A stretch of DNA of 15,604 nucleotides from a virus. Taxonomy: Duplodnaviria > Heunggongvirae > Uroviricota > Caudoviricetes. The stretch lies in IMG/VR virus record IMGVR_UViG_2657245483_000005; one strand, given 5' to 3'. The notes below the pieces were generated by a model that saw only the letters and a list, made by a program, of their open reading frames with translations, was not told the DNA's origin and searched no databases. Shown one piece after another: positions 1-15,604 of the stretch (position 1 is its first letter; every line of letters starts with the position of its first letter). Position numbers and translations under genes: made by a program.

Positions 1-191
1 ATGAAATTAAGATTTATTTCGTCTGCGCTGGCTGCCGCACTATTCGCCGCTACGGGTAGTTATGCTGCCGTTGTAGATGGCGGTACAATTCACTTTGAAG
101 GCGAACTGGTGAATGCTGCCTGTTCAGTGAATACTGACTCGGCAGACCAGGTTGTCACACTCGGTCAATATCGTACCGATATTTTCAATGC
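1..191 (+). pseudogene. Fimbrial major subunit (type 1 / FimA-like), 5' fragment truncated by an IS1 end
   Basis: ORF starts at base 1 with signal peptide [22 protein letters not shown], then [15 protein letters not shown], a pattern typical of chaperone-usher fimbrial major subunits. The frame runs into the IS1 terminal repeat at 192 and stops at 211-213, so only about 60 native codons remain. Confidence 0.7.
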
Positions 192-245
192 GGTAATGAC
201 TCCAACTTATTGATAGTGTTTTATGTTCAGATAATGCCCGATGAC
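192..245 (-). mobile_element. insB: IS1 terminal fragment (right inverted repeat plus insB 3' end), cut off by the scaffold gap
   Basis: ggtaatgactccaacttattgatagtgttttatgttcagataatgcccgatgac matches the IS1 right end as I remember it. The minus-strand translation ends [12 protein letters not shown]-stop, the InsB C-terminus. Confidence 0.85.
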
Positions 246-255
246 NNNNNNNNNN
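246..255. other. Assembly gap (run of 10 N)
   Basis: Ten consecutive n characters directly after the IS1 fragment, consistent with a scaffold join at a collapsed repeat. Confidence 0.95.
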
Positions 256-600
256 GGGACCGTGCTGCGCTTTGCCGATGGTTCGCAGGTAGAACTTACC
301 CCTGGCGTGCACAGCTTCGATAAGCGCGTTACCGAGCACTGGGCTTTTGGTGCGCATGCGCAGGCCATCAGTGAAGAAGATCTGAAGCAGAGCCAGGGAG
401 GCGAAGACCTCTCGCTTAAGATCTCGGCGCTGGAATCCACCATCGCCGGCCTGCAGCAGCAGGTGACGGATAAGGATGTCACTATCGCAGAGCAGTCAGA
501 CACCATCGCCGGCCTGCAGCAGCAGCTGGATGATCTGACTGAGAAGCTTGCATCACAGGAGGCTGGCAATGCCAAAAAACAGCCTTCTGCCAACAAGTGA
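256..600 (+). CDS. Phage structural protein, C-terminal fragment (5' end lost in gap), coiled-coil-like tail with repeated TIAGLQQQ
   Basis: Open frame from the gap to TGA at 598-600, immediately upstream of and overlapping the next phage gene. A 25-bp perfect direct repeat (438-462 and 501-525) encodes the repeated peptide. Confidence 0.6.
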   Translation, partial: GTVLRFADGSQVELTPGVHSFDKRVTEHWAFGAHAQAISEEDLKQSQGGEDLSLKISALESTIAGLQQQVTDKDVTIAEQSDTIAGLQQQLDDLTEKLASQEAGNAKKQPSANK

Positions 601-976
601 TCAATTCCGCACCGACTTTCCTGAGTTTGCCAACACCACCCGCTATCCAGACGCCGCGGTAAATTTTTACCTCTGCCAGGCTGACGCCATCCTCAATCAG
701 GATGTGCACGGCGACCAGTTCGTTTACCTGGCGGAGCTGTTCACTGCGCATTACGTTGAGCTGCGTGGTCGCGCGCTGGCGGGCGCCTCTGGCGGCTTTG
801 TCAGTAGCGGTGGCAGCGGCGTAGCGTCGTCGAAGTCTGTCGATAAGGTCAGCGTCAGCTATGACAACTCGGGCACCATCAACCCTGACGCCGGATTCTG
901 GAATAAAACCGGATACGGCCAGGAGTTCTTCTGGTGGTGGTTGATGTTCGGTGCTGGCGGGCGGCAACTGTTATGA
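569..976 (+). CDS. Phage head-tail joining protein (DUF4054-like, tentative)
   Basis: ATG at 569 is preceded by AGGAGG at 556-561. The track's TTG start at 548 is less likely. Position upstream of the sheath and a size of about 135 aa fit; the family name is from memory only. Confidence 0.6.
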   Translation: MPKNSLLPTSDQFRTDFPEFANTTRYPDAAVNFYLCQADAILNQDVHGDQFVYLAELFTAHYVELRGRALAGASGGFVSSGGSGVASSKSVDKVSVSYDNSGTINPDAGFWNKTGYGQEFFWWWLMFGAGGRQLL

Positions 977-1479
977 GCGGCGTGAAGGTCAGGGCAGACA
1001 ATGCCGCATCCGTGCTGGCCGGGCTGGACAGAGTGTCCCGCATGGATGTGCTGGTGGGCATCCCTGAATCCAACGCTGTGCGTGAGGATGGGGAAGATCT
1101 CAACAACGCTGAGATCGCCTATCTGCAATCCACCGGGGCGACGGTCCGGCTCGGTGGGCAGGAGGTGACCTTGCCGCCGCGCCCGTTCCTGGACATCGGT
1201 ATTGAGGATTCGGCAAAGGTAACTGCTGAGCACCTCAAGGCGGCCGCAGGTCATGCGCTCGATGGCAATTTCTCTGGTGCTGAGCGCGAGCTTACCAGCG
1301 CAGGTCAGCTGGCATCGGATGCCGCGAAGCGCGTTATTACGGATGGTGATCGGCTGGCACCAATATCCGATTTCACTATCCAGAAACGCAGAGAGCGCGG
1401 GTACGCAGGCATTAAGCCGCTGTATGACCATGGCTATCTGCTTCGCTCGATCACCTTCGTTGTGAGAGGTAAAAAATAA
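973..1479 (+). CDS. Hypothetical phage virion morphogenesis protein
   Basis: ATGA start/stop overlap with the upstream gene at 973-976 (translational coupling); 168 codons in the late operon. Confidence 0.7.
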   Translation: MSGVKVRADNAASVLAGLDRVSRMDVLVGIPESNAVREDGEDLNNAEIAYLQSTGATVRLGGQEVTLPPRPFLDIGIEDSAKVTAEHLKAAAGHALDGNFSGAERELTSAGQLASDAAKRVITDGDRLAPISDFTIQKRRERGYAGIKPLYDHGYLLRSITFVVRGKK

Positions 1480-1865
1480 TGCCTTTTCTCGATGTCACCG
1501 ATGTGTTGTCGGATCCTGATTTTTGCGATTACACGCTGGTCTGCATCCGCAACCACCAGGCGAAGGATGCTGACGGCTTCGTGACCAATACGCCGGAGGA
1601 TATTCCGTTTAACGGCGTGGTCACCGTCGACCGCTCGCTGGAAGCCCGGCGCATGGCGGCAGGGCAGGTTATTGGCGGCGCAATCCTGGTGGTTACCACC
1701 TTCCGCTTAACGCAGGGCCTGCCCGGTCAGGATGCTGACGTGGTGCTCTACAACGGGCGGCATTACCGCGTAACGTTTGTGGATCCGTACACCTCATATG
1801 GTGCCGGGTTCGTTCAGGCCCACTGTGAGCTGGTGGAGTTTAACGGAGGTACGCCAGTTGAATGA
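1479..1865 (+). CDS. Hypothetical phage protein (head-tail joining / tail completion region)
   Basis: TAATG overlap with the upstream stop at 1477-1481 and GAGAGG upstream; 128 codons. Confidence 0.7.
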   Translation: MPFLDVTDVLSDPDFCDYTLVCIRNHQAKDADGFVTNTPEDIPFNGVVTVDRSLEARRMAAGQVIGGAILVVTTFRLTQGLPGQDADVVLYNGRHYRVTFVDPYTSYGAGFVQAHCELVEFNGGTPVE

Positions 1866-2400
1866 CACCACACATCCCGGATACCTGACGCCTACCAGCC
1901 AGCCGCCGCAGTACGACCAGGCGCTTGAGCGCGAGCTCAGCCGGTGGATTCGCGGTGTTTCTGGCCTGCCGGATGGCATGGCCATACCACGCTTTACTGA
2001 CCCTCAGCCAGCGATCCCGGTGCTGGGCACCAACTGGTGCGGGTTTGGTATCACAGACTTCCAGGACACAGCCAACCCGGCATCGGTCACCAGGGACGAC
2101 GACACCGACTACCAGTGGCAATTCGAATCGCTGGTGGTGCTCTGCTGTTTCTACGGCCCTGCAGGCCAGGCTTACGCCAAAACGTTTCGTAACGGTCTGT
2201 TCGTGTCCCAGAACAACGCTGAGCTAAATCGCGTCGGCCTCACGCTCGGCGAGGTGGGCCGAATCATCCCGGCGCCCGAGCTCGTTAACAACCAGTGGCA
2301 GCGTCGCTACGACCTGTCTGTGACGCTACGCCGCAAAACGGTACGCGAGTACGGCATCAAATCCATCCTCTCTGCTCCAGTACAATTTTTCGGAGATTAA
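1858..2400 (+). CDS. Hypothetical phage protein (start codon uncertain)
   Basis: Frame is open from 1777, but ATG 1777 lies 89 bp inside the preceding gene. TTG at 1858 follows GGAGG at 1845-1849 with 8-nt spacing and overlaps the upstream stop; the stop is at 2398-2400. Confidence 0.55.
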   Translation: MNDTTHPGYLTPTSQPPQYDQALERELSRWIRGVSGLPDGMAIPRFTDPQPAIPVLGTNWCGFGITDFQDTANPASVTRDDDTDYQWQFESLVVLCCFYGPAGQAYAKTFRNGLFVSQNNAELNRVGLTLGEVGRIIPAPELVNNQWQRRYDLSVTLRRKTVREYGIKSILSAPVQFFGD

Positions 2401-2403
2401 ATC

Positions 2404-3894
2404 ATGCCTAACGGCTTATCTGTATCACGCGTCGTTCGCGTGCAGGTCGCGCTCGCCGTTCGCGCGGCGGCCGGGCGTAACTTCGGCGCGCTGCTGGTTC
2501 TCGGCACCGCCGACGTAATCACTGCCCCGGAAGTGATGCGCCTTTACCAGGATATCGAAAGTGTCGCCACCGACTTTGGCACTACCGCTGAAGAGTACAA
2601 GGCGGCAAACCTTTACTTCCAGCAGTCGCCGCAGCCCCGCGATCTTTATATCGGAAAACTGGAACGCGCCTCCAGCCCGGCAACGGCCGGCAAGCTCACT
2701 GGTGCTGTACTGACCTCTGCAGAGCAGGCAATCGCAAACTTCACCGCGGTTGACGATGGCGCGATTAAGATCTCGGTGGACGGCACTGTTAAAACCGTAA
2801 CGGGTATCGACCTGTCAGCGGTGACCGATCTGGCCGGAGTAGCGACGGCCATCACTGCGAAACTTACCGGCACCGCCGTTTCCTACGTGGCCGGCTCGAA
2901 TCAGTTTGTGGTGACGTCTTCCACTACCGGGGCCACCTCAGCAATTGGTATTCCTGTTGCTGCCGGCACTGGCACTGACCTGGCGCCGCTGCTGGGCATT
3001 GACTCAGCGCATAACCCAACCGTGTCAAACGGCCAGGATGCTTCATCTTCAGTGCTGCCGTCGGTGAACACAGCGCTGAACTACTCAGCCGACTGGTACG
3101 GCCTGGTTATCGCCGATACTGCAATGACGGACCAGGACCATATCGATGTTTCTGCCCTGATCGGCTCTGCGAGCGATTCCCGGGTGTACGGTGTGACGAC
3201 TGCGGCGGCCGAGGTCCTGGACTCAACCAGCACCACGGATATTGCCTACAGGCTGAAAGCCGCCGGTTATGGCCGCACGTTCTGCCAGTACAGCCAGGTG
3301 CCTTATGCCGCAGCCTCTGCCTTTGGTCGCGCGTTCACAGTAAATTTCCTGGGTAACAACACCACCATTACCCTGAAATTCAAGCAGGAACCGGGCATTA
3401 CTGCCGAGACGATCACCGCGCAGCAGGCCGATACGCTCAAGGCAAAAAACTGCAACGTATTTGTGCGCTACGCCAACGATACCGCCATCATCCAGGAAGG
3501 CGTGATGTCCAACGGCGATTTCTTCGACGAGCGCCACGGCCTCGACTGGCTGCAGAATTACGTCCAGAACAACCTCTGGAACCTGCTTTACACCTCAACC
3601 ACCAAAATCCCGCAGACCGAAGCGGGCGTGACGCGCCTGGTGACCAATGTCGAACAGTCGATGGACCAGTCTGTAAACAACGGTCTGGTGGCACCGGGAA
3701 TCTGGAACGGCGGTGACGTCGGACAGCTGACATCAGGCGATATGCTGACCAAAGGCTATTACGTTTACGCGAACCCGCTCAACGCCCAGGCGCAGGCAGA
3801 TCGTGAAGCGCGTAAGGCGCCGGTGATTCAGGTAGCAACCAAACTGGCGGGGGCTATCCACTTCGCTGATGTATTAATCGACGTGGTGCGCTAA
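2404..3894 (+). CDS. Tail sheath protein (DUF3383-like)
   Basis: 496-aa ORF directly upstream of the tube, frameshifted chaperone and tape measure; size and position are typical of a myovirus sheath. GGAG precedes the ATG. Confidence 0.8.
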
Positions 3895-3905
3895 GGGGGC
3901 ACTGA

Positions 3906-4346
3906 ATGAGCACTTATTCTTTTCTGGATATCACGGGGTCAATGACTGGCCCCACCGGGGTGATTGACCTCGGCGCCGGTTCTGCCAACTCCGAAGAGGG
4001 CATTACCATCGCCATGGTCGAAAACAAAAACACCATGACGATCGGCGCTGACGGCGAGGGCATGCACTCCCTGCACGCCGGCAAGGCTGGAACGGTAACC
4101 GTTAACCTTCTGAAAACCTCGCCGGTGAACAAAAAGCTGTCTCTGGCCTACAACGCGCAAAGCCAGTCCTCAGCGCTGTGGGGTAATAACGTCTTTGTGT
4201 TCCGCAACACTGCATCTGGCGACATCATGACCGCGCGCGGCGGCGCCTTCCAGAAGCACCCCGACTGGCAGAACGCCAAAGAGGGCGGGACGGTGGCCTG
4301 GGTGTTCGACTGCATCAAAATTGACCCGTTCCTGGGGGAGTATTAA
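3906..4346 (+). CDS. Tail tube protein (DUF3277-like)
   Basis: 146-aa ORF between the sheath and the tail assembly chaperone; AAGGGGG RBS upstream. Confidence 0.75.
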   Translation: MSTYSFLDITGSMTGPTGVIDLGAGSANSEEGITIAMVENKNTMTIGADGEGMHSLHAGKAGTVTVNLLKTSPVNKKLSLAYNAQSQSSALWGNNVFVFRNTASGDIMTARGGAFQKHPDWQNAKEGGTVAWVFDCIKIDPFLGEY

Positions 4347-4349
4347 TTC

Positions 4350-4775
4350 ATGGAAATTACTATCAAGTATCAGCAGTACCGTATCGCTAAGTTAAGCGTT
4401 TTCGAACAGCTGAAGGTATCCCGCAAGCTGCTGCCGGTTCTGGCGGGTCTGGTTTCTGACTTCCGTAACATCCAGACGAAGCTGAATGCCAAAGACACCG
4501 AAGGCGCGATGGAAAGTATTCTTCCGAAGATCGCTGGCGCCGTTTCCGGCCTCAGTGATGATGATGTGAATGCGATCCTTTTTCCCTGCCTGCAGGTGGT
4601 GGCGCGCAAACACTTGAGCGCCTGGGTGCCGGTGTGCCAGCAGGGCACCATGGCCTTTGACGATATCGACCTGTTCGTGATGCTGCAGCTTGTGGCGCGG
4701 GTGGTCGCCGATTCGCTGGGAAATTTTTTGCAAGGACTTCCTACCAGCGAGACGAACACCCAGCCTGCGGAATAA
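4350..4775 (+). CDS. Tail assembly chaperone, short product (lambda G / P2 E analogue)
   Basis: 141-aa ORF immediately upstream of the tape measure; it contains a slippery heptamer near its 3' end and a -1 frame that is open to the tape measure start. Confidence 0.75.
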   Translation: MEITIKYQQYRIAKLSVFEQLKVSRKLLPVLAGLVSDFRNIQTKLNAKDTEGAMESILPKIAGAVSGLSDDDVNAILFPCLQVVARKHLSAWVPVCQQGTMAFDDIDLFVMLQLVARVVADSLGNFLQGLPTSETNTQPAE

Positions 4776-4963
4776 CCTTTAACACCCTGCCGGGCGGTGA
4801 GGATTACATCCTTCGCCCGGCGCTCGCCTTCAACCTCGATCAGAAAGACCTCGACAGCGGTGCAGTGGACCTGTGCCGCATCGCGCTGCTTAACGATTAC
4901 CTCGATATGCGTGACGATAACGACGCGCGCGTAGCCAAATGGAGAGCCCAGAACAATGGCTGA
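4350..4963 (+). CDS. Tail assembly chaperone, -1 frameshift-extended product (GT / E+E' analogue, about 204 aa)
   Basis: The -1 frame entered at A_AAT_TTT (4721-4727) has no stop until TGA 4961-4963; I translated it codon by codon. The extension fills the otherwise ORF-free 180 bp before the tape measure ATG at 4956. Confidence 0.65.
4721..4727 (+). promoter_or_regulatory. Programmed -1 ribosomal frameshift slippery site (A_AAU_UUU)
   Basis: The heptamer fits X_XXY_YYZ in the zero frame (gga AAT TTT ttg). It is followed by more Ts and sits 16 codons before the zero-frame stop. Confidence 0.6.
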
Positions 4964-6935
4964 TACTATCCGTGATTACCTGGTCTCTCTGGGGTTCGAT
5001 ATCGACGGCGCGGGCCAGGCGAAGTTTGAAGCCACGCTCAAAGGTGTGGCCGCGAACGTCGTAAAACTGGGGGCCATAGTTGAGTCGACGGGGCTGGCCA
5101 TTGTGGGCTTCACCGCCTCGATCGCCAGCGGCCTTGATAAACTCTACTGGGCCGCGGAACGCACCGGGGCATCGGTCAACGGCATCAAGGCGCTTGGCTA
5201 TGCTGCCTCACAAACCGGCTCCAGCGCCGAGGCTGCCCAGAACTCACTGGAGAGCCTGGCGCGCTTCATGCGCAGCAATCCCGGCGCCGAAGGCTTCCTG
5301 AACCGCCTGGGGGTGCAGACCCGGGACGCTTCCGGACAGATGCGCGACATGTCGGCTATCTTCACCGGCGTCGGCCAGCGCCTCAGCAGCATGCCCTATT
5401 ATCGAGCCAATCAGTTCGCGCAGATGCTGGGCATTGACGAAAACACGCTGATGGCAATGCGGCGAGGAATGTCCGGCTTCACGGCTGAATACCAGTCGAT
5501 GATGCAGAAGACAGGCTTCGATGCTGACAGGGCCGCGCAGCAGTCCAACAAGTTCATGACCTCAATGCGCAACTTCGTTTCGCTACTGGGGATCTTGCGC
5601 GATAAGGTTGGCTCGAATCTGGCCGGCGGCCTGAGCGGCACGCTGAACAATCTCAGCAAGCAGATGCTGGAGAACTGGCCGAAGATAGAGGGCGTGGTCA
5701 CGAAGATAGTGAAGGGGGTGCTCTTTGCTGCTGATGTCATTACCCAGATGGCGTGGCGCGTCTCGCAGGCGGTAGGCGGCCTGATTGAGTGGTTTAAAAA
5801 GCTGCCGCCGGATATACAGCAGCTAATCATGCTGGTGTCCGGGCTGGTTTCGGCGTGGCAGCTGCTTAACGCTGAGTTCCTCAAATCGCCGATAGGTATC
5901 GTAATCGCGCTAGGCTCGGCGCTGTTCGCGCTTTACGACGACTACAAAACCTGGAAAGAAGGCGGTCAAAGCCTGCTGCCCTGGGATAAATGGGAGCCAG
6001 AAATAGAGGCTGCCCTGAAATCGCTTGGCGAGCTGCGGGATTCTGTGAAGGCGATAGGGGTTGAAATCGCAAAGCTGCTCAATATCAACCTCAAAAACTG
6101 GACCCTTAAAGGCGACATCGACAACCTCACTAAGCAGTTCGGTGAGTTTGGCAAGATGATTAAGATGATTGGCGACCTGATAAACGCCATCAACGAGGGG
6201 CGTTGGAAAGATGCTTATGCGATCGGCAAGAACCTGCTGGCACAAGGGCAAGGCCAGGATGCTCTACCTGCAGTATCTGACAGCGCTAACAATACTGCTG
6301 ACTGGATAGAGGGCAAGACGGGGTTCGACCCGCGAAGCATCGGGAAAACAATAAACGGGTGGATTTTCGGCAAAGAAGAGGGCGGCTCAGACCAGCAGGA
6401 GAGCGGCCCGGGCAAGACGCTGGCCGACCGTAACAACAATCCTGGCAACCTGCGCCCCGTCGGCGGCACCGGTTTTACCTCTCATCAGACGCCGCTTGAT
6501 GGTTGGATGGCAATGGCCAGGCAGATCCGTCTTTATTTCACCGGAAAAAGCGCGGCCGCCGGGTATGAAAAACTCCAGTCAATATGGGACATCATCCACA
6601 AATACGCACCTGCCAGCGACAACAACGACCCCGAGGCCTATTCGAACTTCGTAGCCAATATGATGGGCGTGGGCGCTAAGGACACGCTGAACCTGAGCGA
6701 CCCGCAGCAGTTCAGCAACCTTCTGCAGGCCATGTCCAGGAAGGAAGGTTACGGTCAGTGGAATTCCCCATTGGCCAGCGTTGCCGCTACGCAGGCAGCC
6801 GCGCAGATCAGCCAGGAAACGAACATCAATATTTACGGCGCGAGCGACCCGGCATCCACTGGCCGGGAGGTTGCCGATCGTCAATCCGGCGTTAATTCCC
6901 GTCTTACTCAGCAGCTACAACCGAGGGTCTACTGA
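4956..6935 (+). CDS. Tail tape measure protein
   Basis: 659-aa ORF immediately after the frameshifted chaperone, with a GGAGAG RBS. Ala/Gly/Gln-rich with a helical-looking composition, and the longest gene in the module. Confidence 0.85.
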   Translation: MADTIRDYLVSLGFDIDGAGQAKFEATLKGVAANVVKLGAIVESTGLAIVGFTASIASGLDKLYWAAERTGASVNGIKALGYAASQTGSSAEAAQNSLESLARFMRSNPGAEGFLNRLGVQTRDASGQMRDMSAIFTGVGQRLSSMPYYRANQFAQMLGIDENTLMAMRRGMSGFTAEYQSMMQKTGFDADRAAQQSNKFMTSMRNFVSLLGILRDKVGSNLAGGLSGTLNNLSKQMLENWPKIEGVVTKIVKGVLFAADVITQMAWRVSQAVGGLIEWFKKLPPDIQQLIMLVSGLVSAWQLLNAEFLKSPIGIVIALGSALFALYDDYKTWKEGGQSLLPWDKWEPEIEAALKSLGELRDSVKAIGVEIAKLLNINLKNWTLKGDIDNLTKQFGEFGKMIKMIGDLINAINEGRWKDAYAIGKNLLAQGQGQDALPAVSDSANNTADWIEGKTGFDPRSIGKTINGWIFGKEEGGSDQQESGPGKTLADRNNNPGNLRPVGGTGFTSHQTPLDGWMAMARQIRLYFTGKSAAAGYEKLQSIWDIIHKYAPASDNNDPEAYSNFVANMMGVGAKDTLNLSDPQQFSNLLQAMSRKEGYGQWNSPLASVAATQAAAQISQETNINIYGASDPASTGREVADRQSGVNSRLTQQLQPRVY

Positions 6936-7510
6936 TGGATATTTTATCGGTCATCTTCCGGCTGCAGTCTCGGAAAATAGGTATTTTTGTACCTGACGTG
7001 GTGGTGTCGGAGAAGCATGTTGATGCCCTGGAAATCACTGAACATCCGGTGGAGTTTGGCGCCGCCATAAACGACCACGCCTATAAGCGCGCCAGCGAGG
7101 TCACTATGGAGTGCGGGTTTGCCGGCGGCGGGTCGGTACTCGACCTGGTAAATCTGTCCAGCATAGGCTTGCGGGTTGGCGAGAGCCCAAGGGAGATTTA
7201 TCAGCAGTTGCTGGATCTGCAGAAATCCCGGGTGCCGTTTGATGTTGTTACCGGCAAGCGCACCTACAGCAATATGCTGATACGCGCTATCGAGGCCACG
7301 ACGGACCGAACCAGCGAAAATGTGCTGTCATGCGTTCTGACGCTGCGGGAAGTGATCATGTCGGATACGCAGAGCATCACTGTTACGGATAAGGCCAACA
7401 TGCAGGAGGGAGTCAGCACCGCGCCAGTACAGAATACAGGGATGAAATCTCTGGTGCCGACCAGCAGCTCATCTGTAATTCAAAAGATAGCCGATTTTGC
7501 GAGGGGATAA
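6935..7510 (+). CDS. Hypothetical baseplate / tail-tip associated protein
   Basis: TGATG overlap with the tape measure stop; 191 aa, located between tape measure and baseplate hub. Confidence 0.65.
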   Translation: MDILSVIFRLQSRKIGIFVPDVVVSEKHVDALEITEHPVEFGAAINDHAYKRASEVTMECGFAGGGSVLDLVNLSSIGLRVGESPREIYQQLLDLQKSRVPFDVVTGKRTYSNMLIRAIEATTDRTSENVLSCVLTLREVIMSDTQSITVTDKANMQEGVSTAPVQNTGMKSLVPTSSSSVIQKIADFARG

Positions 7511-7815
7511 TGAGCGTTAATGAGATTCCGATGATCCCTGATAACCAGGAGTTTCGCATCACCCTGGGCGACATAAGCTACACGCTCCGCGTGCTATGGC
7601 GCGACGATGCTGGCTGGATAATGGACGTTATGGATAGCGGCGCGCAGCCTCTGTTAATGGGCGTCCCCCTGGTGCCGGGGGTTAACCTTTTGGCTCAGTA
7701 TCCGGATCTGGGGATATCTGGCGCACTGGTGGTCATGACAGACAACGGAGCCCCTGAATACCCGACGAAAACAAACCTTGGTGCCTCGAGCCATCTTTAT
7801 TTTGTTCAGGAATAG
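7510..7815 (+). CDS. Hypothetical small baseplate-region protein
   Basis: TAATG overlap with the upstream gene; 101 aa. Confidence 0.6.
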   Translation: MSVNEIPMIPDNQEFRITLGDISYTLRVLWRDDAGWIMDVMDSGAQPLLMGVPLVPGVNLLAQYPDLGISGALVVMTDNGAPEYPTKTNLGASSHLYFVQE

Positions 7816-7818
7816 CCC

Positions 7819-8889
7819 ATGACTATTAACTGGAATCGCCATTTTGAACTGCGGCTTCTGAACGACAAGGGGAATGGCATATCCCTGTCGGACTTTAAAG
7901 TTACCTTCGCAATCGACTGGTTTAACTCGATGTGGCCACGTGTGGCGACGCTTAAAATTTACAACCTCAAGCGTGACACAATCACCCGGATTACGGGGGA
8001 TGAGTTTTCTCGCATTACCATCATAGCCGGTTATAACGGCCTGGCGCCGACGGTTACTGAAAGCGAGGTTGGGCAGGTTACCGAGATTTCATCTGAGCAA
8101 ACCGGCCAGACGCGCGGGCAAAATTACGGAGTCATTTTTGATGGGGAGATTCGTTTTACGATAACCGGGCGCGATAATCCTACCGATATTTTTACGCTAA
8201 TTCAGTCGGTAGATGGTCATAAGGCGTTCAACGAAGCCGTATCGTCCGGCAGCCTGGCGGCAGGATATAAGCTTGCCGACGTGCATACACTTCTGATGAA
8301 GGACTTTTCGCCTTACGGCATCACCCAGGGCATCACCGGGCAGTTCCCTGACAGGGTGATGCCACGCGGTCGCGTCTTCTTCGGCGCAACGCGCGACTAC
8401 ATGAGCAACCTAGCGGCGCAGTGCGAGGCTAACTGGCAATTTGTCGACGGCCAGCTGCAAATGGTGCCTGAGAATAAATATCTCCATGAAGCGATCGTGC
8501 TTAACACCAAAACTGGCCTGGTCGGTATGCCTCAGCAAACCATGGGGGCAGGCGTTAATGTGCGCTGTCTCATTAATCCAAACATTCGGGTTAACGGGCT
8601 TATTCAGTTGAACCAGGACTCGGTGTATCGCTCGCAATTACCGAACGATGAGATCCAAAGATCACAGGCAAGGATTACTGAGGCAAATGATAATGGTAAT
8701 CTTAGTACAGGCAGCGCGACGCTTGCGCAGCCCGCCAGTGTGGCAACTGATGGCGTTTACATAGTTCAGTCAATCAGCTACACCGGCGATACGAGAGGGA
8801 ATCCGTGGTATATGGATCTCATGTGTATGGCCAGAGGGGCGCGTGATTTACAATCGAATACGGCCCTACAGCGAACGGCTCCACAATGA
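7819..8889 (+). CDS. Baseplate hub protein (Mu gp44 / P2 gpD-like, tentative)
   Basis: 356-aa ORF located where the hub sits in Mu/P2-like baseplate modules, upstream of the spike, gpW-like, gpJ-like and gpI-like genes. Confidence 0.5.
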   Translation: MTINWNRHFELRLLNDKGNGISLSDFKVTFAIDWFNSMWPRVATLKIYNLKRDTITRITGDEFSRITIIAGYNGLAPTVTESEVGQVTEISSEQTGQTRGQNYGVIFDGEIRFTITGRDNPTDIFTLIQSVDGHKAFNEAVSSGSLAAGYKLADVHTLLMKDFSPYGITQGITGQFPDRVMPRGRVFFGATRDYMSNLAAQCEANWQFVDGQLQMVPENKYLHEAIVLNTKTGLVGMPQQTMGAGVNVRCLINPNIRVNGLIQLNQDSVYRSQLPNDEIQRSQARITEANDNGNLSTGSATLAQPASVATDGVYIVQSISYTGDTRGNPWYMDLMCMARGARDLQSNTALQRTAPQ

Positions 8890-9242
8890 AAAAAATACTT
8901 TTTTTGGTTTCTTTAGCATTCGTCAGTTTTTCTTCTACAGCGGCAAACACCGCTTATATGAAGTGTGGTCCCTTTACTTTCTCAACCTCATCAAGCAACG
9001 ACGGATATCCGAGGATAAACGGAGCAAAGCCTGATAGTCAGAAGGTGACATTCCTCAAAAAAGAGGGAGATTATGACAATATTAAAATGCAATGGATTGT
9101 CATGAATGAGAATTCTGGGCAGCGCTATGGTCTTGATTATATAAAACGCAATGGGAGAGGGATACTCAATGCCGAGGCCATCAGAATGAACATGAATGAA
9201 CCTCGAGTGTTTGGAACTTACGACTGCGTGAAGGCTAAGTAA
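8886..9242 (+). CDS. Small secreted protein of unknown function, cargo gene, AT-rich
   Basis: N-terminal signal peptide MKKILFLVSLAFVSFSSTAA with no lipobox, two Cys in the mature part, and composition sharply AT-richer than the flanking genes. The start overlaps the hub stop (ATGA at 8886-8889). Confidence 0.7.
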   Translation: MKKILFLVSLAFVSFSSTAANTAYMKCGPFTFSTSSSNDGYPRINGAKPDSQKVTFLKKEGDYDNIKMQWIVMNENSGQRYGLDYIKRNGRGILNAEAIRMNMNEPRVFGTYDCVKAK

Positions 9243-9251
9243 TTTAATAAA

Positions 9252-9272
9252 GGCGCCGGAACTACCGGCGCT
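9252..9272. terminator. GC-rich hairpin between convergent genes (candidate bidirectional terminator, better for the minus-strand gene)
   Basis: ggcgccgg / aacta / ccggcgct forms a 7-bp GC stem plus one G-U pair. On the minus strand it is followed by the U/A-rich tract ttattaaatt; on the plus strand the T-run is interrupted. Confidence 0.5.
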
Positions 9273-9275
9273 CAG

Positions 9276-9626
9276 TTACTCGTCTTTAAAACTTATAATT
9301 TTGTACTGCTCCAGTACTTCTGAAAGCTCCTTTGATGTCAGATTTTGTATTTCGATCGTACCTTTTTCAGTGGTTACCGTTATTTTTTTTGATGATCTGG
9401 TCTGTAACCATTTTCTCGCTATCGATGCAATGGCGATACAAGCTGGTGATGATGTGATAACGGTAATAGATATTTCGAGAATTGTGCCAATAGCGCCAGG
9501 AGAATCACCCGTTCTGACTCTTTTACTTACTACATAGTCATTAGCGGGTATGTTATCCTGGATTACAGGAAGTAACTCTTTCCAAATAGCTGGAGTAAAT
9601 TTTATGGTTGTTTCTGATTTTGGCAT
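9276..9626 (-). CDS. Hypothetical cytoplasmic protein, cargo gene, AT-rich
   Basis: 116-aa minus-strand ORF inside the AT-rich insertion, hydrophilic and balanced in composition. The plus-strand ORFs over the same DNA look like antisense junk. No strong RBS was seen, so the exact start is uncertain. Confidence 0.55.
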   Translation of the reverse strand: MPKSETTIKFTPAIWKELLPVIQDNIPANDYVVSKRVRTGDSPGAIGTILEISITVITSSPACIAIASIARKWLQTRSSKKITVTTEKGTIEIQNLTSKELSEVLEQYKIISFKDE

Positions 9627-9805
9627 AAAGGTTTCAGGCCCCTATCGAGAGAAGCTAAAAATTGCCTACCGGCTTTTCCTTAGCAGCCTGTATCTTGCTA
9701 CAAATCACGACGTTACCGTGGTTCTAAGCAAAACCTATATTAAGAGCTGCAATGAAGATAAATAGCACGCATTAACTCACCCTCAAATCCTGACATTTGA
9801 TCAGT

Positions 9806-9827
9806 AACCCGCCTCGGCGGGTTTTTT
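9806..9827 (+). terminator. Rho-independent terminator (plus strand)
   Basis: aacccgcc / tcg / ggcgggtt is a perfect 8-bp stem with a 3-nt loop, followed by tttttt; it ends 18 bp before the spike gene ATG. Confidence 0.75.
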
Positions 9828-9844
9828 ATTACCTGGAGAAAGCT

Positions 9845-10498
9845 ATGCCAGTATCAGCCCGCGCGCAGGACGGCAACGAATCGCAGACTCTTGAGGCGCA
9901 CCGCCACGCCATTTTCGGCAGCCTGCGCGTGGCTTTGCCGGGGATCATCCAGTCCTTTGACCCTGAAACAGTGACATGCACCGTGCAGCCAGCCATCTAC
10001 GGTCAGCGGCTCAGCGACGATGGCGCTCTGGTTTCTGAGGAGATACCGATTTTGCCAGACGTTCCAGTGGTGTTCCCCCGCGGCGGTGGCTGCACGTTAA
10101 CCTTCCCGGTAAAGGCCGGTGACGAGTGCCTCCTGGTCTTCTCCGATCGCTGCATCGACTTCTGGTGGCAGAGCGGCGGGGTGCAGGAACCGGTTGACCC
10201 GCGCCAGCATGACCTGAGTGATGCGTTTGCCATTGTGGGTCCGCAGTCGCAGGCGCAGAAAATCAGCAGCATCAGTACCAGTGCGGTTGAACTGCGCAGT
10301 GACGACGGTGGAACAAAACTGAGCCTTAACCCTTCATCCGGAGCGATAACGGGAACCGCGCCGGGAGGCTTCAACCTTAACGGTCTGAAAATTCTGCCTG
10401 ACGGCCGCCTGCAGCTGGTGGATGGCTCCATGGTTGATAAGCATACGCATGGCGGCGTGGAAGTCGGCGGCAGCAATACGAAACCACTGGGAGGGTAA
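9845..10498 (+). CDS. Baseplate central spike protein (gpV / Mu gp45-like)
   Basis: ATG at 9845 with GGAGA 7 nt upstream; the track's ATG at 9797 lies within the terminator. 217 aa, positioned after the hub, with an HxH motif (HTH, 10442-10450) near the C-terminus as in iron-binding spike apices. Confidence 0.55.
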   Translation: MPVSARAQDGNESQTLEAHRHAIFGSLRVALPGIIQSFDPETVTCTVQPAIYGQRLSDDGALVSEEIPILPDVPVVFPRGGGCTLTFPVKAGDECLLVFSDRCIDFWWQSGGVQEPVDPRQHDLSDAFAIVGPQSQAQKISSISTSAVELRSDDGGTKLSLNPSSGAITGTAPGGFNLNGLKILPDGRLQLVDGSMVDKHTHGGVEVGGSNTKPLGG

Positions 10499-10500
10499 TT

Positions 10501-10854
10501 ATGCGATACCGACGCGAAGACGACGACGGGGACTACACCTTCGGCCAGGGCGATGACACCTTTCTGGTCAACTCACCCGAGTGCGTGGCCCAGGCCGTTA
10601 AAACGCGCTTTGAACTGTGGAAGGGGCAATGGTTTCTGGACACAACCGAGGGCACACCCTATATCCAGTCGGTTCTGGGAAAGCAAAGGCCTGAGGTTTA
10701 TAACCTTGCGATCAGGGATCGCATCAGCACCACACCTGGCGTTCTGTCCATACTGGCCTTTGATACCGTGAATGAAAGCACGACACGCCGGGTAACGTTC
10801 ACAGCCACCATAAACACTATCTACGGACAAACCACCCTTACCAGCGAGGCATAA
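10501..10854 (+). CDS. Baseplate protein (P2 gpW / Mu gp46-like, tentative)
   Basis: 117-aa ORF between the spike and the baseplate J-like gene; assignment is by position and size. Confidence 0.5.
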   Translation: MRYRREDDDGDYTFGQGDDTFLVNSPECVAQAVKTRFELWKGQWFLDTTEGTPYIQSVLGKQRPEVYNLAIRDRISTTPGVLSILAFDTVNESTTRRVTFTATINTIYGQTTLTSEA

Positions 10855-12054
10855 ATGGCCCTCAATTTGGACACGCTCGGCTTATCGGCAACGGTAACCG
10901 CTGAGGGGATCAGCGCGCCTGATTACCAGACAATACTGGACACCCTGACCAACTACTTTAAGCAGATATATGGCAGCGATGCTTATCTGGATCCTGACAG
11001 CAAAGACGGGCAGATGGTGGCGCTGGTGGCCCTGGCTATTCACGATGCTAACAACACGGCCATTGCTGTTTACAACAGCTTTTCGCCTGCCACCGCTTAT
11101 GGCGCAGGGCTGAGCAAGAACGTGAAAATAAACGGTATTAAAAGGAGAACGGCTACCAACTCAACGGTTGATTTGCTGCTTACCGGCGCGGCCGGTACGA
11201 CCATTTCGAATGGCTCCGTCAGGGATAAGAATGGCCTGGTCTGGAGCATGCCGGCTTCCGTGGTAATTGGTTTAGACGGGACGGCGACGGTCACTGCCAC
11301 CTGCTCAAATAGCGGCGCAGTGGCCGCGCTGTCCGGAACGGTCACGACCATTAACACACCGACCCGCGGCTGGACTTCGGTAACTAACCCCGCGGCGGCC
11401 ACCGTCGGATCCCCGGCGGAAACCGACGCAGAGCTGCGCATCCGGCAGGGGCAGAGTGTCGCGCTACCCTCCATCACGCCGTTTGAAGGGGTGGACGGCG
11501 CGATAGTGAACGTTGCAGGGGTTACACGTCACAAGCTCTACGAGAATGATACCGGCACGACCGACAGTAATGGGCTGCCGCCACACTCTATCTCTGCCAT
11601 CGTGGATGGCGGCGATCTGACTGAAATCGCCCAGGCCATCCGGGGCAATAAGGGGCAGGGGGTGTCAACGTATGGTGCGACAGCCGTCACGGTGCCGGAT
11701 AAATACGGTAATCCCCATGTGATTCGCTTCTCCCGGTCAACGGATGTTCCTATTTATGGACATATAACGCTGAAAGCTTTCGCGGGTTACACATCACAAA
11801 TAGGTAAGGAGATTCAGCAGGCCGTTGCGGATTACATCAACGACCTGACGATCGGTGATTCGGTGCTGCTGAGCCGCATTTATTCACCTGCCAACCTCGG
11901 GGTGGTCAGCGGCGGTAGCGCGCGTTATTACGACATCCAGGAATTACTCATCGGTAAATCAGCAGGATCCGTAGCATCGGCAAACATAACCATAGCCTAC
12001 GACGAATCAGCTTCATGTAAACCGGCAAACATCGTTATCACGGTGACGTCATGA
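10855..12054 (+). CDS. Baseplate J-like protein (gpJ / Mu gp47 family)
   Basis: 399-aa ORF; size, position and the ETDAELRIRQ segment fit the baseplate J family. Confidence 0.7.
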   Translation: MALNLDTLGLSATVTAEGISAPDYQTILDTLTNYFKQIYGSDAYLDPDSKDGQMVALVALAIHDANNTAIAVYNSFSPATAYGAGLSKNVKINGIKRRTATNSTVDLLLTGAAGTTISNGSVRDKNGLVWSMPASVVIGLDGTATVTATCSNSGAVAALSGTVTTINTPTRGWTSVTNPAAATVGSPAETDAELRIRQGQSVALPSITPFEGVDGAIVNVAGVTRHKLYENDTGTTDSNGLPPHSISAIVDGGDLTEIAQAIRGNKGQGVSTYGATAVTVPDKYGNPHVIRFSRSTDVPIYGHITLKAFAGYTSQIGKEIQQAVADYINDLTIGDSVLLSRIYSPANLGVVSGGSARYYDIQELLIGKSAGSVASANITIAYDESASCKPANIVITVTS

Positions 12055-12731
12055 GTAGGTACACGGATCTAATCACTAACTACCACGCCACTAAGCCGAA
12101 ATACCTCGATCACATCGATCTTAGTACCCGTCCCCTGATTGATATCACGTCAGCCACAAGGGGCCTGGTGAGTGCGTTTGACATTGATACGGCTGTTGGC
12201 GTGCAACTCGATATTCTCGGACTCTGGATTGGACGTAGCCGTATAGTCAGCCAGCCCATTAGTGGCGTTTATTTCAGTTGGGACACGGAGGGGCTCGGAT
12301 ATGACCAGGGCGTATGGCAGGGGCCATATGATCCTGACTCCGGCTATACGACGCTTAGCGATGATACCTATCGCACTATTCTGAAAGCAAAAATCGCTAT
12401 TAACAACTGGGACGGGCGTAACGACTCGCTTCCGGACATTCTTGACACTGCCACAGTGGGTTCGGGCCTGAAGATGCAGATCGTCGACAATCAGGACATG
12501 ACGATATCGGTCTGGGTATTTCCCGAGACTGATATTTCTGATGTGTCTCTCGAACTGATCGCCGCTATCAAACAGGGCTATCTCACCGTTAAAGCCGCTG
12601 GCGTCTGGGCCGGTGATGTTGAAATGCCTTCGGTTGAAACACCGTCCGAAGGAACAAAATTCTTTGGATTTGACATGGATAACGAATACATCGCCGGTTT
12701 TGATGACGGCGCATGGGGGAGATTACTTTAA
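12051..12731 (+). CDS. Baseplate wedge / tail-fibre attachment protein (gpI-like, DUF2612-like)
   Basis: ATGA overlap with the gpJ-like stop; 226 aa, immediately upstream of the tail fibre gene. Confidence 0.6.
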   Translation: MSRYTDLITNYHATKPKYLDHIDLSTRPLIDITSATRGLVSAFDIDTAVGVQLDILGLWIGRSRIVSQPISGVYFSWDTEGLGYDQGVWQGPYDPDSGYTTLSDDTYRTILKAKIAINNWDGRNDSLPDILDTATVGSGLKMQIVDNQDMTISVWVFPETDISDVSLELIAAIKQGYLTVKAAGVWAGDVEMPSVETPSEGTKFFGFDMDNEYIAGFDDGAWGRLL

Positions 12732-13510
12732 TGGCTGGAACTAATGATTTTAAAGCGTTTGCGACAGATGCTAATGCAAATGTTACCTCGCAGGAGGAAT
12801 GGGAGACGCTAACCGCACTGAAGAAAGGATTCTCCTCGGGTAAAGCATCCAGCGCACAGGTCAGTAAAGCGCTGCGCCAACCGTCGACGATGGCGGCTGT
12901 ACTGGGGCAGTTTATCGCGAACGCCGAACTGGACGCGCTCGATGATGGTGACGTTGATGGACTGGTGGCAAAGCTGGCGACAGCGATTACCACAAACCTT
13001 GGTTTGGGAGAAGGCTCAGCATTACCCGTTGGCGTACCTGTTCCGTGGCCTTCAGCCACACCGCCGACAGGCTGGCTGAAATGCAACGGTGCCGCTTTTT
13101 CTGCTGAAGAATACCCGGAACTGGCAAAGGCTTACCCGACAAATAAATTGCCTGATTTACGTGGTGAGTTTATTCGTGGCTGGGATGACGGGCGTGGAGT
13201 GGATAGCGGTCGTACTTTATTAACGAATCAAGAGCATGCAGTAATTTCTCATAATCATGGAATACCTACAAAAGTGGGGTCAGTTACTAATATCCCGTAT
13301 GGAATAGAACAGGTTATATCTGATGAAACCATTTTTTCATCAGCAAAAACAGTTGGTGTGGATTACTGGTCTAACAGTGAAAGAGTTTTTACTTATACCT
13401 CTGGTGGAAGAAATGGTGCTGAATCAGTGAGTTCACCTGATGCCTCCTCTTTAATTAAAGAAACCAGACCACGGAACCTAGCATTTGCGTATATCGTGAG
13501 GGCTGCATAA
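12731..13510 (+). CDS. Tail fibre protein: constant N-terminal part (codons 1-90) plus currently joined variable C-terminal part
   Basis: TAATG overlap start at 12731 (an alternative in-frame ATG lies at 12713). The C-terminal part contains LPDLRGEFIRGWDDGRGVDSGRTL, a collar-type motif I recall from tail fibre proteins. A crossover site sits at codons 86-94. Confidence 0.8.
   Translation: MAGTNDFKAFATDANANVTSQEEWETLTALKKGFSSGKASSAQVSKALRQPSTMAAVLGQFIANAELDALDDGDVDGLVAKLATAITTNLGLGEGSALPVGVPVPWPSATPPTGWLKCNGAAFSAEEYPELAKAYPTNKLPDLRGEFIRGWDDGRGVDSGRTLLTNQEHAVISHNHGIPTKVGSVTNIPYGIEQVISDETIFSSAKTVGVDYWSNSERVFTYTSGGRNGAESVSSPDASSLIKETRPRNLAFAYIVRAA
12987..13012. repeat. Left crossover site of the invertible segment (hix/gix-like 26-bp imperfect palindrome)
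   Basis: ttaccacaaaccttggtttgggagaa, central dinucleotide TT at 12999-13000. It is 21/26 identical to the reverse complement of the site at 14971-14996. Confidence 0.7.
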
Positions 13511-14112
13511 TGGTGAAAGCAAAATTAAACAGTGCGTTTATTGCCACCGTGGCAGGTGAAATCACTGTGTACAACTACCGGGGCGACACCCGCGAATACA
13601 TATCCTCATCGGTTGAGTATCTGCCTGTGGGGGTGGGTATTCCTGCCAATTCCTGTACCGATGCGCCCGGCACACATAAAGCTGGTTATGCAATCTGCCG
13701 TTCTGCAGATTTTAACTCATGGGAATATGTGCCAGACCATCGCGGTGAAACGGTATATAGCACTGAAACAGGAGAATCAAAAGAAATCACAGCTCCGGGT
13801 GATTACTCTGAAAATACAACTACTATCGCCCCGTTAACGCCATTCGATAAATGGGATGGTGAGAAATGGGTGACCGATACTGAGGCACAGCATAGCGCCG
13901 CAGTAGACGTGGCAGAAGCACAGCGCCAGTCGCTGATTGATGCTGCTATGGCTTCCATCAGTCTGATTCAGCTGAAATTGCAGGCCGGGCGGCAACTGAC
14001 GCAAGCAGAAATCACTCGCCTTAACGCTGTGCTGGATTACATTGACACGGTGACGGCAACAGATACCAGCACCGCGCCGGATGTCATCTGGCCTGAACTG
14101 CCGGAGGCGTAG
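13510..14112 (+). CDS. Tail fibre assembly protein (Mu U / lambda Tfa-like), currently expressed orientation
   Basis: TAATG overlap with the fibre stop; 200 aa; C-terminal LDYIDTV..DTSTAPDVIWPELP matches the conserved Tfa C-terminal pattern. Confidence 0.75.
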   Translation: MVKAKLNSAFIATVAGEITVYNYRGDTREYISSSVEYLPVGVGIPANSCTDAPGTHKAGYAICRSADFNSWEYVPDHRGETVYSTETGESKEITAPGDYSENTTTIAPLTPFDKWDGEKWVTDTEAQHSAAVDVAEAQRQSLIDAAMASISLIQLKLQAGRQLTQAEITRLNAVLDYIDTVTATDTSTAPDVIWPELPEA

Positions 14113-14527
14113 GCCATTCAATATCTGGAGCACTGGAGGTATCAACCAGTTCCAGTGCGTCCAGATAATCCAGCCACAAATTATATTGCGCCAGTTCCTC
14201 ACTTTTCAGACGACCAATCGCCGCTTTGCCAGGCCACTGATGAGTATTGATGTAGGTATTGACTTCAGAAACCAAAGATATTTTTTTCATTTCAGCCGTC
14301 AACACCTCATCCTCTTTTGAAGGGGGTGGGGAATTAATCCATACTGGCCGTCCTGAACTGTCAGCGCCAATTTCTTTCCCTTCTGGATGCAGCCCAAGAA
14401 ATTGCTCATATGTTTCTCTGGTAATTTCAATAACATCATCAGGAAGCGTTCCCGCATCCTCATATTCTGGAAACAATTCTTGCAGATAAAAACTTTTACT
14501 TCCGGGTGAAAAGAATACTGAGTTCAT
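14084..14527 (-). CDS. Alternative tail fibre assembly protein (U'-like)
   Basis: Minus-strand 147-aa ORF with C-terminal LDYLDALELVDTSSAPDIEWPTPP, matching the Tfa pattern; located directly downstream of the minus-strand fibre tip. Confidence 0.7.
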   Translation of the reverse strand: MNSVFFSPGSKSFYLQELFPEYEDAGTLPDDVIEITRETYEQFLGLHPEGKEIGADSSGRPVWINSPPPSKEDEVLTAEMKKISLVSEVNTYINTHQWPGKAAIGRLKSEELAQYNLWLDYLDALELVDTSSAPDIEWPTPPAVQAR

Positions 14528-14529
14528 TC

Positions 14530-14982
14530 TTACCGTCCAATGATTAATGCTGAGACGCTGGTATCTGAAGGAAAGGCTGCATTCAGTGGTTTGTCGACTT
14601 TGAACACAATCGTATTATTCCCCCTGACAGCGGCAAAAGAACAAACCGCAGTCGCGTATGAACCTGTAATATTACTGGATACACCACCATAAGCTGTTGT
14701 TGATACCAGAGGGATAACGCCCAGCACCTTATTAGGAAATACAAAGGGCAATGTGGCTGTGGCAATATAAGACTTATTAGAACCTGTAATGGCATAAGCA
14801 TTATCAGTCATTCCATTCATCGCCACCGGGCCGCTTATACTTACAGTAACCATCTGAATGATTAGCCCGTCAGGTTGACGAATCACAAAATTTCCATTGC
14901 CACCAGTAACCGTCCAGAAAGACATATCAGGGATTTGGTTTTCCCCGTTGCCCACATTCCGTTTTGCCGCTTCTCCCAAACC
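14530..14982 (-). CDS. Alternative tail fibre C-terminal cassette (Sv'-like), startless, fused to the fibre gene only after inversion
   Basis: Minus-strand frame open from the right crossover site to the stop at 14530. The sequence after the core encodes GLGE, the same residues that follow the core in the plus-strand fibre, and the frame matches. Confidence 0.7.
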   Translation of the reverse strand, partial: GLGEAAKRNVGNGENQIPDMSFWTVTGGNGNFVIRQPDGLIIQMVTVSISGPVAMNGMTDNAYAITGSNKSYIATATLPFVFPNKVLGVIPLVSTTAYGGVSSNITGSYATAVCSFAAVRGNNTIVFKVDKPLNAAFPSDTSVSALIIGR

Positions 14983-14996
14983 AACCTTTTTTATAA
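14971..14996. repeat. Right crossover site of the invertible segment (hix/gix-like)
   Basis: ttctcccaaaccaaccttttttataa, central AA at 14983-14984; the inner 14 bp are identical to the inner half of the left site in inverted orientation. It lies 60 bp upstream of the invertase ATG. Confidence 0.7.
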
Positions 14997-15026
14997 CCAT
15001 CAAAAATCTGGTGATGCTTCGCCGTT

Positions 15027-15049
15027 TCTCCTGTTTTCATAACAGGAGA
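15027..15049 (+). promoter_or_regulatory. Perfect 9-bp stem hairpin that includes the invertase Shine-Dalgarno
   Basis: tctcctgtt / ttcat / aacaggaga; the right arm contains AGGAG, 7 nt before the ATG at 15056. Confidence 0.5.
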
Positions 15050-15055
15050 AATCCC

Positions 15056-15604
15056 ATGATTTACGGTTATGCCCGAGTATCAACAAACCACCAGGACACT
15101 GAATTGCAACTAACGGCGCTCAAGTCAGCGGGTTGTGAGAAAATTTTTGAAGAGCATGCCAGCGGGAGGAAATCGAATCGGCCGGTTCTAAAACGGCTGA
15201 TCGCCACTATGCAGCCGGGGGATGAACTGGTGGTCTGGAAGCTGGACAGGATAGGCCGCAACGTTCTGCATGCGCTGTTGATGTTCCAGCAGTTACAGGA
15301 AAAGGGTATCAACTTCCGCAGTATTACCGATGGCGTGGATCTCAAAACAGCCAGCGGCCGCTATAACTTTCGTAACATCCTTTCCGCAGCACAATATGAA
15401 TCTGATCTTAATAGCGAACGTACCTTAGCAGGGCTGGCCGTAGCCAGGGCAAAAGGGCGAGTTGGTGGTCGCAGGCCTAAGTTCACGGATGAGCAATGGC
15501 GGGAAATGGGGGAGCGGATGGCAACCGGTGAATCACGACAAAGCGTATCAAAAACGTATGGAGTAGGGCTCTCAACTCTGTATAAAAAGTTTCCAGCTAG
15601 CTGA
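15056..15604 (+). CDS. Serine DNA invertase (Hin/Gin/Cin/Pin family)
   Basis: Starts MIYGYARVSTNHQDTELQ, with the catalytic Ser in the RVST motif, and has a C-terminal helix-turn-helix (GESRQSVSKTYGVGLSTLYKKFPA). The track ORF begins at 14897, but the family-conserved N-terminus and RBS place the start at 15056. The stop is at the window end. Confidence 0.93.
   Translation: MIYGYARVSTNHQDTELQLTALKSAGCEKIFEEHASGRKSNRPVLKRLIATMQPGDELVVWKLDRIGRNVLHALLMFQQLQEKGINFRSITDGVDLKTASGRYNFRNILSAAQYESDLNSERTLAGLAVARAKGRVGGRRPKFTDEQWREMGERMATGESRQSVSKTYGVGLSTLYKKFPAS

Follow-up and report, generated by a model that had tools for sequence, protein, structure and literature searches.

In complete Escherichia coli genomes of other strains, sfmA, which encodes the major subunit of the Sfm chaperone-usher fimbriae, lies downstream of folD and is followed in canonical order by the chaperone and usher genes, sfmH, sfmF and fimZ. 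Insertions of IS1 into this gene can be found in several strains. In W21, Eco_70239 and PSS-11 these are simple insertions, with a target duplication of 8–9 bp and the rest of sfmA resuming beyond the element. In MSB1_9I and 1EC213 the element bounds a deletion, reaching sfmH in the former and sfmC in the latter. The sites of insertion are close together, at nt 198 of the gene in MSB1_9I, about nt 200 and 201 in W21 and Eco_70239, and nt 230 in PSS-11 and 1EC213, compared with nt 192 in RU1, the lineage described here. Adjacent deletions are a known effect of IS1.

The second half of the junction studied here is phage DNA, and its closest relatives are likewise known from complete genomes. The prophages at the yciI locus of strains NCTC11023, COL60J, ES7 and Res13-Sevr-PER07-33 are 99.2–100% identical to it over 87–97% of positions 256–15604 of the window, as we call the whole stretch of 15,604 nt that was analysed. 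They end with the same invertase gene adjoining yciI-tonB as the window's phage DNA does, and they differ from it in the tail-fibre segment. Directly upstream of the equivalent of window position 256, they carry lambdoid early, lysis, terminase, portal and capsid genes. Among deposited phages, the baseplate and tail modules of Salmonella phage SEN34, Yersinia phage YP3 and Citrobacter phage Omnitron show 76–82% identity over 16–20% of the query, and none covers more than 20%. The element thus lacks a close relative among deposited phages and has been met solely in the prophage state.

The window comes from the E. coli assembly GCA_001412995.1, record JRSD01000246.1 (4,393,758 bp), with which it is identical in sequence; it starts at position 10001 of the LB9 source locus (L003) and is identical from there. 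The assembly is listed as E. coli 'RU1 LB9' in a table of PMC9638481, where its sister assemblies are named 'RU1 MA#', 'RU1 LB#' and 'RU1 BHI#'. RU1 is a human-stool isolate, one clone of which gave rise to the LB, BHI and mutation-accumulation lines (PMC4263409). The LB series comprised twelve populations kept for 500 generations, the BHI populations ran for 765 generations, and twelve mutation-accumulation lines went through 200 daily single-colony transfers, and paired-end Illumina reads of 100 bp were obtained from evolved clones as well as from entire populations (PMC4263409). The RU1 set consists of about 35 assemblies in the accession span GCA_0014128xx–0014139xx, and its backbone is only 99.3% identical to the nearest complete E. 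coli genome. That distance, and the lack of the sfmA-IS1 junction in complete E. coli genomes, had suggested Shigella or enteroinvasive E. coli as the origin, an idea rejected because the source proved to be a commensal stool isolate. LB9 itself is a whole-population sample, so that its assembly is a consensus, and a minority rearrangement invisible to such an assembly may exist within that population. With a probability of roughly 94%, we consider the junction between sfmA and the phage in this record to be an assembly artefact, in which two unrelated short-read contigs were stitched together by ten Ns.

The left part of the window and the join itself consist of three features:

1–191, plus strand: 5′ fragment of sfmA, the gene for the major subunit of Sfm chaperone-usher fimbriae, 99.5% identical to the annotated gene
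192–245, minus strand: right (IRR, insB-distal) end of IS1, 54 nt, identical to the annotated IS1A of strain MSB1_9I
246–255, no strand: run of ten Ns, a contig join and not a measured gap; the only N run in the window

The fragment can be assigned to sfmA because folD lies directly upstream of it in the source record, at the end of the series allF-purK-purE-lpxH-ppiB-cysS-ybcI-ybcJ-folD. Thousands of complete E. coli genomes carry a fimA/sfmA gene beside folD to which its 191 nt are 99.5% identical, and this nucleotide identity to annotated genes settles the identity of the gene. The Pfam Fimbrial profile (PF00419) matches the fragment at 23.3 bits, over profile positions 1–36 of 151, and falls short of the cut-off of 25.6 because only the N-terminus of the truncated gene is present. 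What remains of sfmA encodes the signal peptide and the first 40 or so mature residues. An earlier note on this DNA had the fimbrial gene intact for about 60 codons, and the count is in fact 63 2/3, after which the reading frame enters IS1 for six codons and stops at 211–213. The resulting sfmA′-IS1 fusion ORF of 70 aa serves as an exact tag of the junction.

The switch to IS1 occurs at 192, with the sequence beginning GGTAATGACTCCAACTTATTGATAG. The terminal inverted repeat of IS1, of about 23 bp (GGTRATG..CCAACTTAYTGAT), has one exact match, at 192–214, where none was expected from 200 shuffles, and the 54 nt as a whole are identical to an annotated IS1 right end, just as the note had read them. 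The transposase genes of this copy would read on the minus strand. A complete IS1 of about 768 bp with insA and insB′ is absent from the window, which holds the 54 nt and then the N run. The same copy in gap-free sister assemblies measures 766–769 nt and carries minus-strand ORFs for DDE_Tnp_IS1 and InsA. The note had proposed a check for the other IS1 end and a target-site duplication, and the window yields neither: it has no other IS1 end, and the 9 bp that flank the element (TTTCAATGC) occur in it just once and likewise start none of four right-hand flanks in the gap-free sister assemblies. Here the locus differs from the insertions in other strains, where the second IS1 end was assembled.

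The insertion itself is a genuine and ordinary event that inactivates sfmA. In every RU1-derived assembly examined, the gene is interrupted by IS1 after nt 191 (codon 64), and the note's view that the fimbrial operon is disrupted thus stands whatever the status of the join. RU1 is unable to make the Sfm major subunit. None of the lineage assemblies links the sfm genes 3′ of sfmA (chaperone, usher, sfmH, sfmF and fimZ) to the fragment. The nt-191/192 junction of sfmA with IS1 is specific to the RU1 lineage: none of 5,426 complete E. coli genomes has it, and an exact-pattern scan of a species-representative genome collection gave no match.

What follows IS1 varies from one assembly to the next. 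The 70-aa ORF was found, exact, in ten RU1 assemblies, and the partners after IS1 are nine different loci, joined either through a gap-free IS1 or through a run of ten Ns (N10):

LB9 (source of the window): phage tail genes, N10
BHI7: nuo operon, gap-free IS1
LB12: csiD-gab, N10
LB10: ompG, gap-free IS1
LB7: yqeJ / ETT2 region, gap-free IS1
MA4: yqeJ / ETT2 region, gap-free IS1
BHI4: queG-mutL-hfq, N10
LB4: dcuS-fumB, gap-free IS1
MA7: yghJ (sslE) / gsp type II secretion locus, N10
LB3: another locus, N10

Over the 10,245 nt that end with the IS1 end, the ten assemblies are 0–1 SNP apart; locus L010 shows 23 differences, all within a foreign contig that precedes an N run at the left edge of that locus. 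A different rearrangement of the same IS1 copy in every line is impossible among lines that lie a few hundred generations from a single clone. Moreover, sfmA joined to this phage occurs in 0 of the 5,426 complete E. coli genomes, and the two sides of the window map to distant loci, the left to sfm and the right to yciI-trp.

The form of the joins is equally telling. In the five N10 cases, the left contigs retain 54, 60, 60, 62 or 60 nt of IS1, and the right-hand contig opens in unique DNA without IS1 every time (5/5). We infer that these tails of 54–62 nt are the k−1 overlaps of a de Bruijn assembler run with odd k, and the even tail lengths fit such overlaps because k is odd. Other N10 runs in the series also join unrelated ends, as in L010, where yqeF is joined in mid-gene to the middle of an eut gene. 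From the non-reproducible partners and these unrelated joins it follows that the N10 spacer holds no positional information. The gap-free copies fare little better. LB7 and MA4 (L007 and L010) have the same neighbours on both sides of IS1, and the interior of the element differs between them at 32 sites; the IS1 interiors have therefore been filled from mixed copies. The yqeK/ETT2-side flank shared by these two assemblies is the only recurrent partner, and is a candidate for the IRL neighbour of the sfmA IS1. The note was right to find ten Ns after IS1; the run at 246–255 is the sole one of the window.

The join has also given rise to a gene prediction that spans it:

241–600, plus strand: artefactual chimeric ORF of 119 aa, from an ATG in the IS1 end through the N run into a phage gene

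The deposited assembly lists this ORF among its gene calls (10241–10600 in L003), and the artefactual protein has entered databases. A further join of the same kind is seen in RU1 MA10 (L014, 1345–1417), where the phage contig starts in the middle of lysC after an N10 run. The contig before that run lies downstream of ynfGH-like genes and ends in about 63 nt that we take to be an IS186 end. The MA10 run is another uninformative join.

To the right of the Ns the window is occupied by a single phage contig:

256–600, plus strand: 3′ part (345 nt) of a phage gene of 366 nt ('STY1053 family', coiled-coil, SlyX-like), the first 21 nt missing
256–15604, plus strand: late genes of a myovirus-type prophage, one gap-free contig, as in the prophages of four complete genomes
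15056–15604, plus strand: serine invertase gene (Resolvase and HTH_7; Pfam E = 3.6e-39), the right end of the prophage, adjoining yciI

The late genes present are those for the neck, sheath, tube, tape measure, baseplate, tail fibre and invertase. In the source record the contig runs without N past the end of the window into yciI-tonB-yciA-yciB-yciC-ompW-yciEFG-trpABCD, and because of this gap-free continuation it can be said to sit at the prophage's normal locus. The first gene, aligned to its intact form at L001 19980–20345, has weak coiled-coil Pfam matches only and follows the major capsid gene in the intact arrangement. The phage DNA, which from 256 matches a prophage of the four complete genomes at 100% identity, does begin inside a gene, as had been noted, with position 256 falling at the eighth codon and not really in the middle.

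A deletion is a rival account of the junction. The note had offered an IS1 event that removed the head, terminase and early genes and left a tail-only remnant of the prophage. In specific terms, the IS1 in sfmA of LB9 would have undergone intramolecular transposition into the phage gene and deleted all that lay between, leaving sfmA′-IS1-tail genes. The orientation of the two pieces is that of a deletion product, since sfmA and the phage contig share orientation relative to the K-12 map, and the IS1-bounded deletions from sfmA in MSB1_9I and 1EC213 provide a precedent. On the K-12 map, sfmA lies at about 0.56 Mb and tonB-trp at about 1.31 Mb, or some 750 kb apart, and by K-12 gene order an event of this size would have removed many essential genes. 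Such a deletion should also have left the left end of IS1 abutting phage DNA, and there are no IS1 bases on the phage side at 256. The same sfmA junction has a partner in each of nine other lines, and the prophage is contiguous from head to tail in sister lines. Specifically, terminase, portal, capsid, STY1053 and tail genes are contiguous across the equivalent of position 256 in 14 of the 16 RU1 places found (RU1 MA10, L014, together with 13 similar places that are not shown separately), and only LB9 and MA5 have breaks at this phage position.

The capsid gene, which lies inside the interval that would have been deleted, is itself in the record. A 304-aa capsid protein labelled 'partial' (P0039, WP_149006594.1), 100% identical and lacking the last 10 of 314 codons, has as its only contig one of 4,393,758 bp, equal to the source record JRSD01000246.1. 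A head gene is accordingly present in the same record, as the agreement of the two lengths to the base pair shows. The search for missing head genes that the note had suggested thus turned up 304 of the 314 capsid codons in the record that holds the supposed remnant. Taken together with the contiguous sister lines and the nine partners, this refutes the deletion, a very improbable account and the least likely of those considered here. An inversion was considered as well and rejected; it would not bring sfmA′ to the tail side in the observed orientation.

The break on the phage side has a character of its own. Each head contig breaks off within the capsid gene, at codon 304 in LB9 and 296 in MA5, with no IS nucleotides on either side, and the unique DNA missing between head and tail contigs comes to about 90 nt in LB9 and about 126 nt in MA5. 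The MA5 counterpart of the partial capsid is a 296-aa protein (P0055) on a record of 4,666,050 bp, and a nonsense mutation in an unrelated Logan contig yields this 296-aa sequence too. The end of the MA5 protein may therefore be either a contig end or that nonsense mutation, the NCBI label 'partial' being what is relied on here. On the tail side, the MA5 contig (L017) begins at the equivalent of window position 267, 11 nt from the break in LB9.

This proximity raises the question of a mobile element in the phage itself. According to such an account, a multicopy element, either IS1 or another IS, would have inserted, in LB9 and MA5 alike, somewhere from the capsid gene to the eighth codon of the STY1053 gene and so broken the phage contig, and the scaffolder would have paired the wrong IS1 ends. 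Two breaks within 11 nt of each other (256 and 267), both preceded by IS1-ended contigs, are what it would predict. IS nucleotides occur on neither side of the break, however, and 90–126 nt of unique DNA are missing between the contigs. Ahead of the gap, LB9 has the IRR end of IS1 and MA5 the IRL end, and a single insertion common to both cannot account for this. The two lines are moreover independent, and other descendants of the founder are contiguous here, so that two independent hits would be needed. We regard such an insertion as quite unlikely, though a shade less so than the deletion.

On the preferred reading, the assembly artefact, the left contig stops 54 nt into the multicopy IS1, where the assembler was unable to pass the repeat, and a pipeline then appended, after ten Ns, an unrelated contig that carries the tail half of the prophage from the yciI-tonB-trp locus. 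The start of the phage contig is set by a hole of about 90 nt of unique phage DNA, reaching from the 3′ end of the capsid gene into the eighth codon of its neighbour, and no mobile element is involved at this break. A dropout in coverage or assembly seems the best reading of the hole. A strong hairpin does not explain it: the segment contains a GC-rich stem-loop, but its predicted folding is unexceptional (z = −1.6). The note's other suggestion, a misjoin of two unrelated contigs at a collapsed IS1, is therefore upheld as to the unrelated contigs but not as to the element, given that IS1 borders the left contig only and the phage side starts at a hole of about 90 nt.

The phage DNA has several other features of interest. 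The STY1053-family gene contains a 24-nt repeat, ACCATCGCCGGCCTGCAGCAGCAG, which occurs twice, at 433–456 and 502–525, 69 nt from start to start. A Logan contig (L020, 11186–11210) has an in-frame deletion in this gene, 63 nt by alignment, which corresponds to one repeat copy and the spacer, and the same contig carries a nonsense mutation at capsid codon 297. An ORF of 116 aa on the minus strand (9276–9626) lies between baseplate genes and weakly matches Pfam EACC1 (PF19953); the prophage may thus carry an accessory ('moron') gene here. Farther right, 27-nt inverted repeats at 12987–13013 and 14970–14996, about 2 kb apart, resemble hix/gix crossover sites. They enclose oppositely oriented genes for the tail-fibre C-terminus and its assembly (13510–15003), beside the invertase at 15056–15604, in the manner of an invertible tail-fibre segment of the Gin/Pin/Hin type.

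The identical invertase protein adjoins yciI across a very large number of assemblies (8,172 index blocks). The tail modules that precede invertase-yciI vary among them, with lambda-like J tails, Mu-like baseplates and, as here, an E217/PhiTE-like tail. The invertase-yciI end looks like the constant anchor of a mosaic prophage site. Degraded derivatives of the prophage also occur elsewhere, in L018 (GCA_042748925.1) and L028 (AP027634.1), in neither case involving sfmA. Among these true remnants one finds an ORF that fuses sheath to invertase, a junction of DinI with portal, and internal deletions that run from the cement protein as far as the neck terminator gene.

As deposited, the record invites false inferences, namely a tail-only prophage remnant and a 750-kb rearrangement. 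The N10 joins of the RU1 series should be treated as contig boundaries without positional meaning, and gap-free IS1 copies in these records are likewise untrustworthy as a link between their two flanks. The join of fimbria to phage is not a novel arrangement, and the modest real biology of the locus is an sfmA gene inactivated by IS1 in RU1 and in every laboratory line descended from it.

That inactivation can be set beside the insertions known from other strains. Across unrelated E. coli lineages, one 40-bp segment of sfmA (nt ~190–230) has received IS1 at least four times, in what look like independent events, and further IS1 copies occur a few hundred bp downstream of this segment. Those of the other strains are no more than 40 bp from the RU1 site, cut the subunit after about 64–77 codons, and have the same orientation as in RU1, which is an ascertainment effect of a search that joins same-strand pieces only. 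An orientation-specific insertion of IS1 into sfmA had been entertained, and was dropped on account of that same search design. That nt ~190–230 of sfmA may constitute a recurrent IS1 target is a tentative proposition, somewhat on the doubtful side. If true, it would mean repeated inactivation of Sfm fimbriae.

As for the junction, the known class that it most resembles is that of repeat-induced misjoins in short-read assemblies. It is like them in its multicopy IS of 768 bp, beyond the span of 100-bp reads, in its N10 spacer and in the varying partner of its left contig. It is unlike them in one respect, in that it does not amount even to a mistaken choice among IS1 copies: the right contig of the window does not end in the repeat but at an unrelated hole in the assembly.
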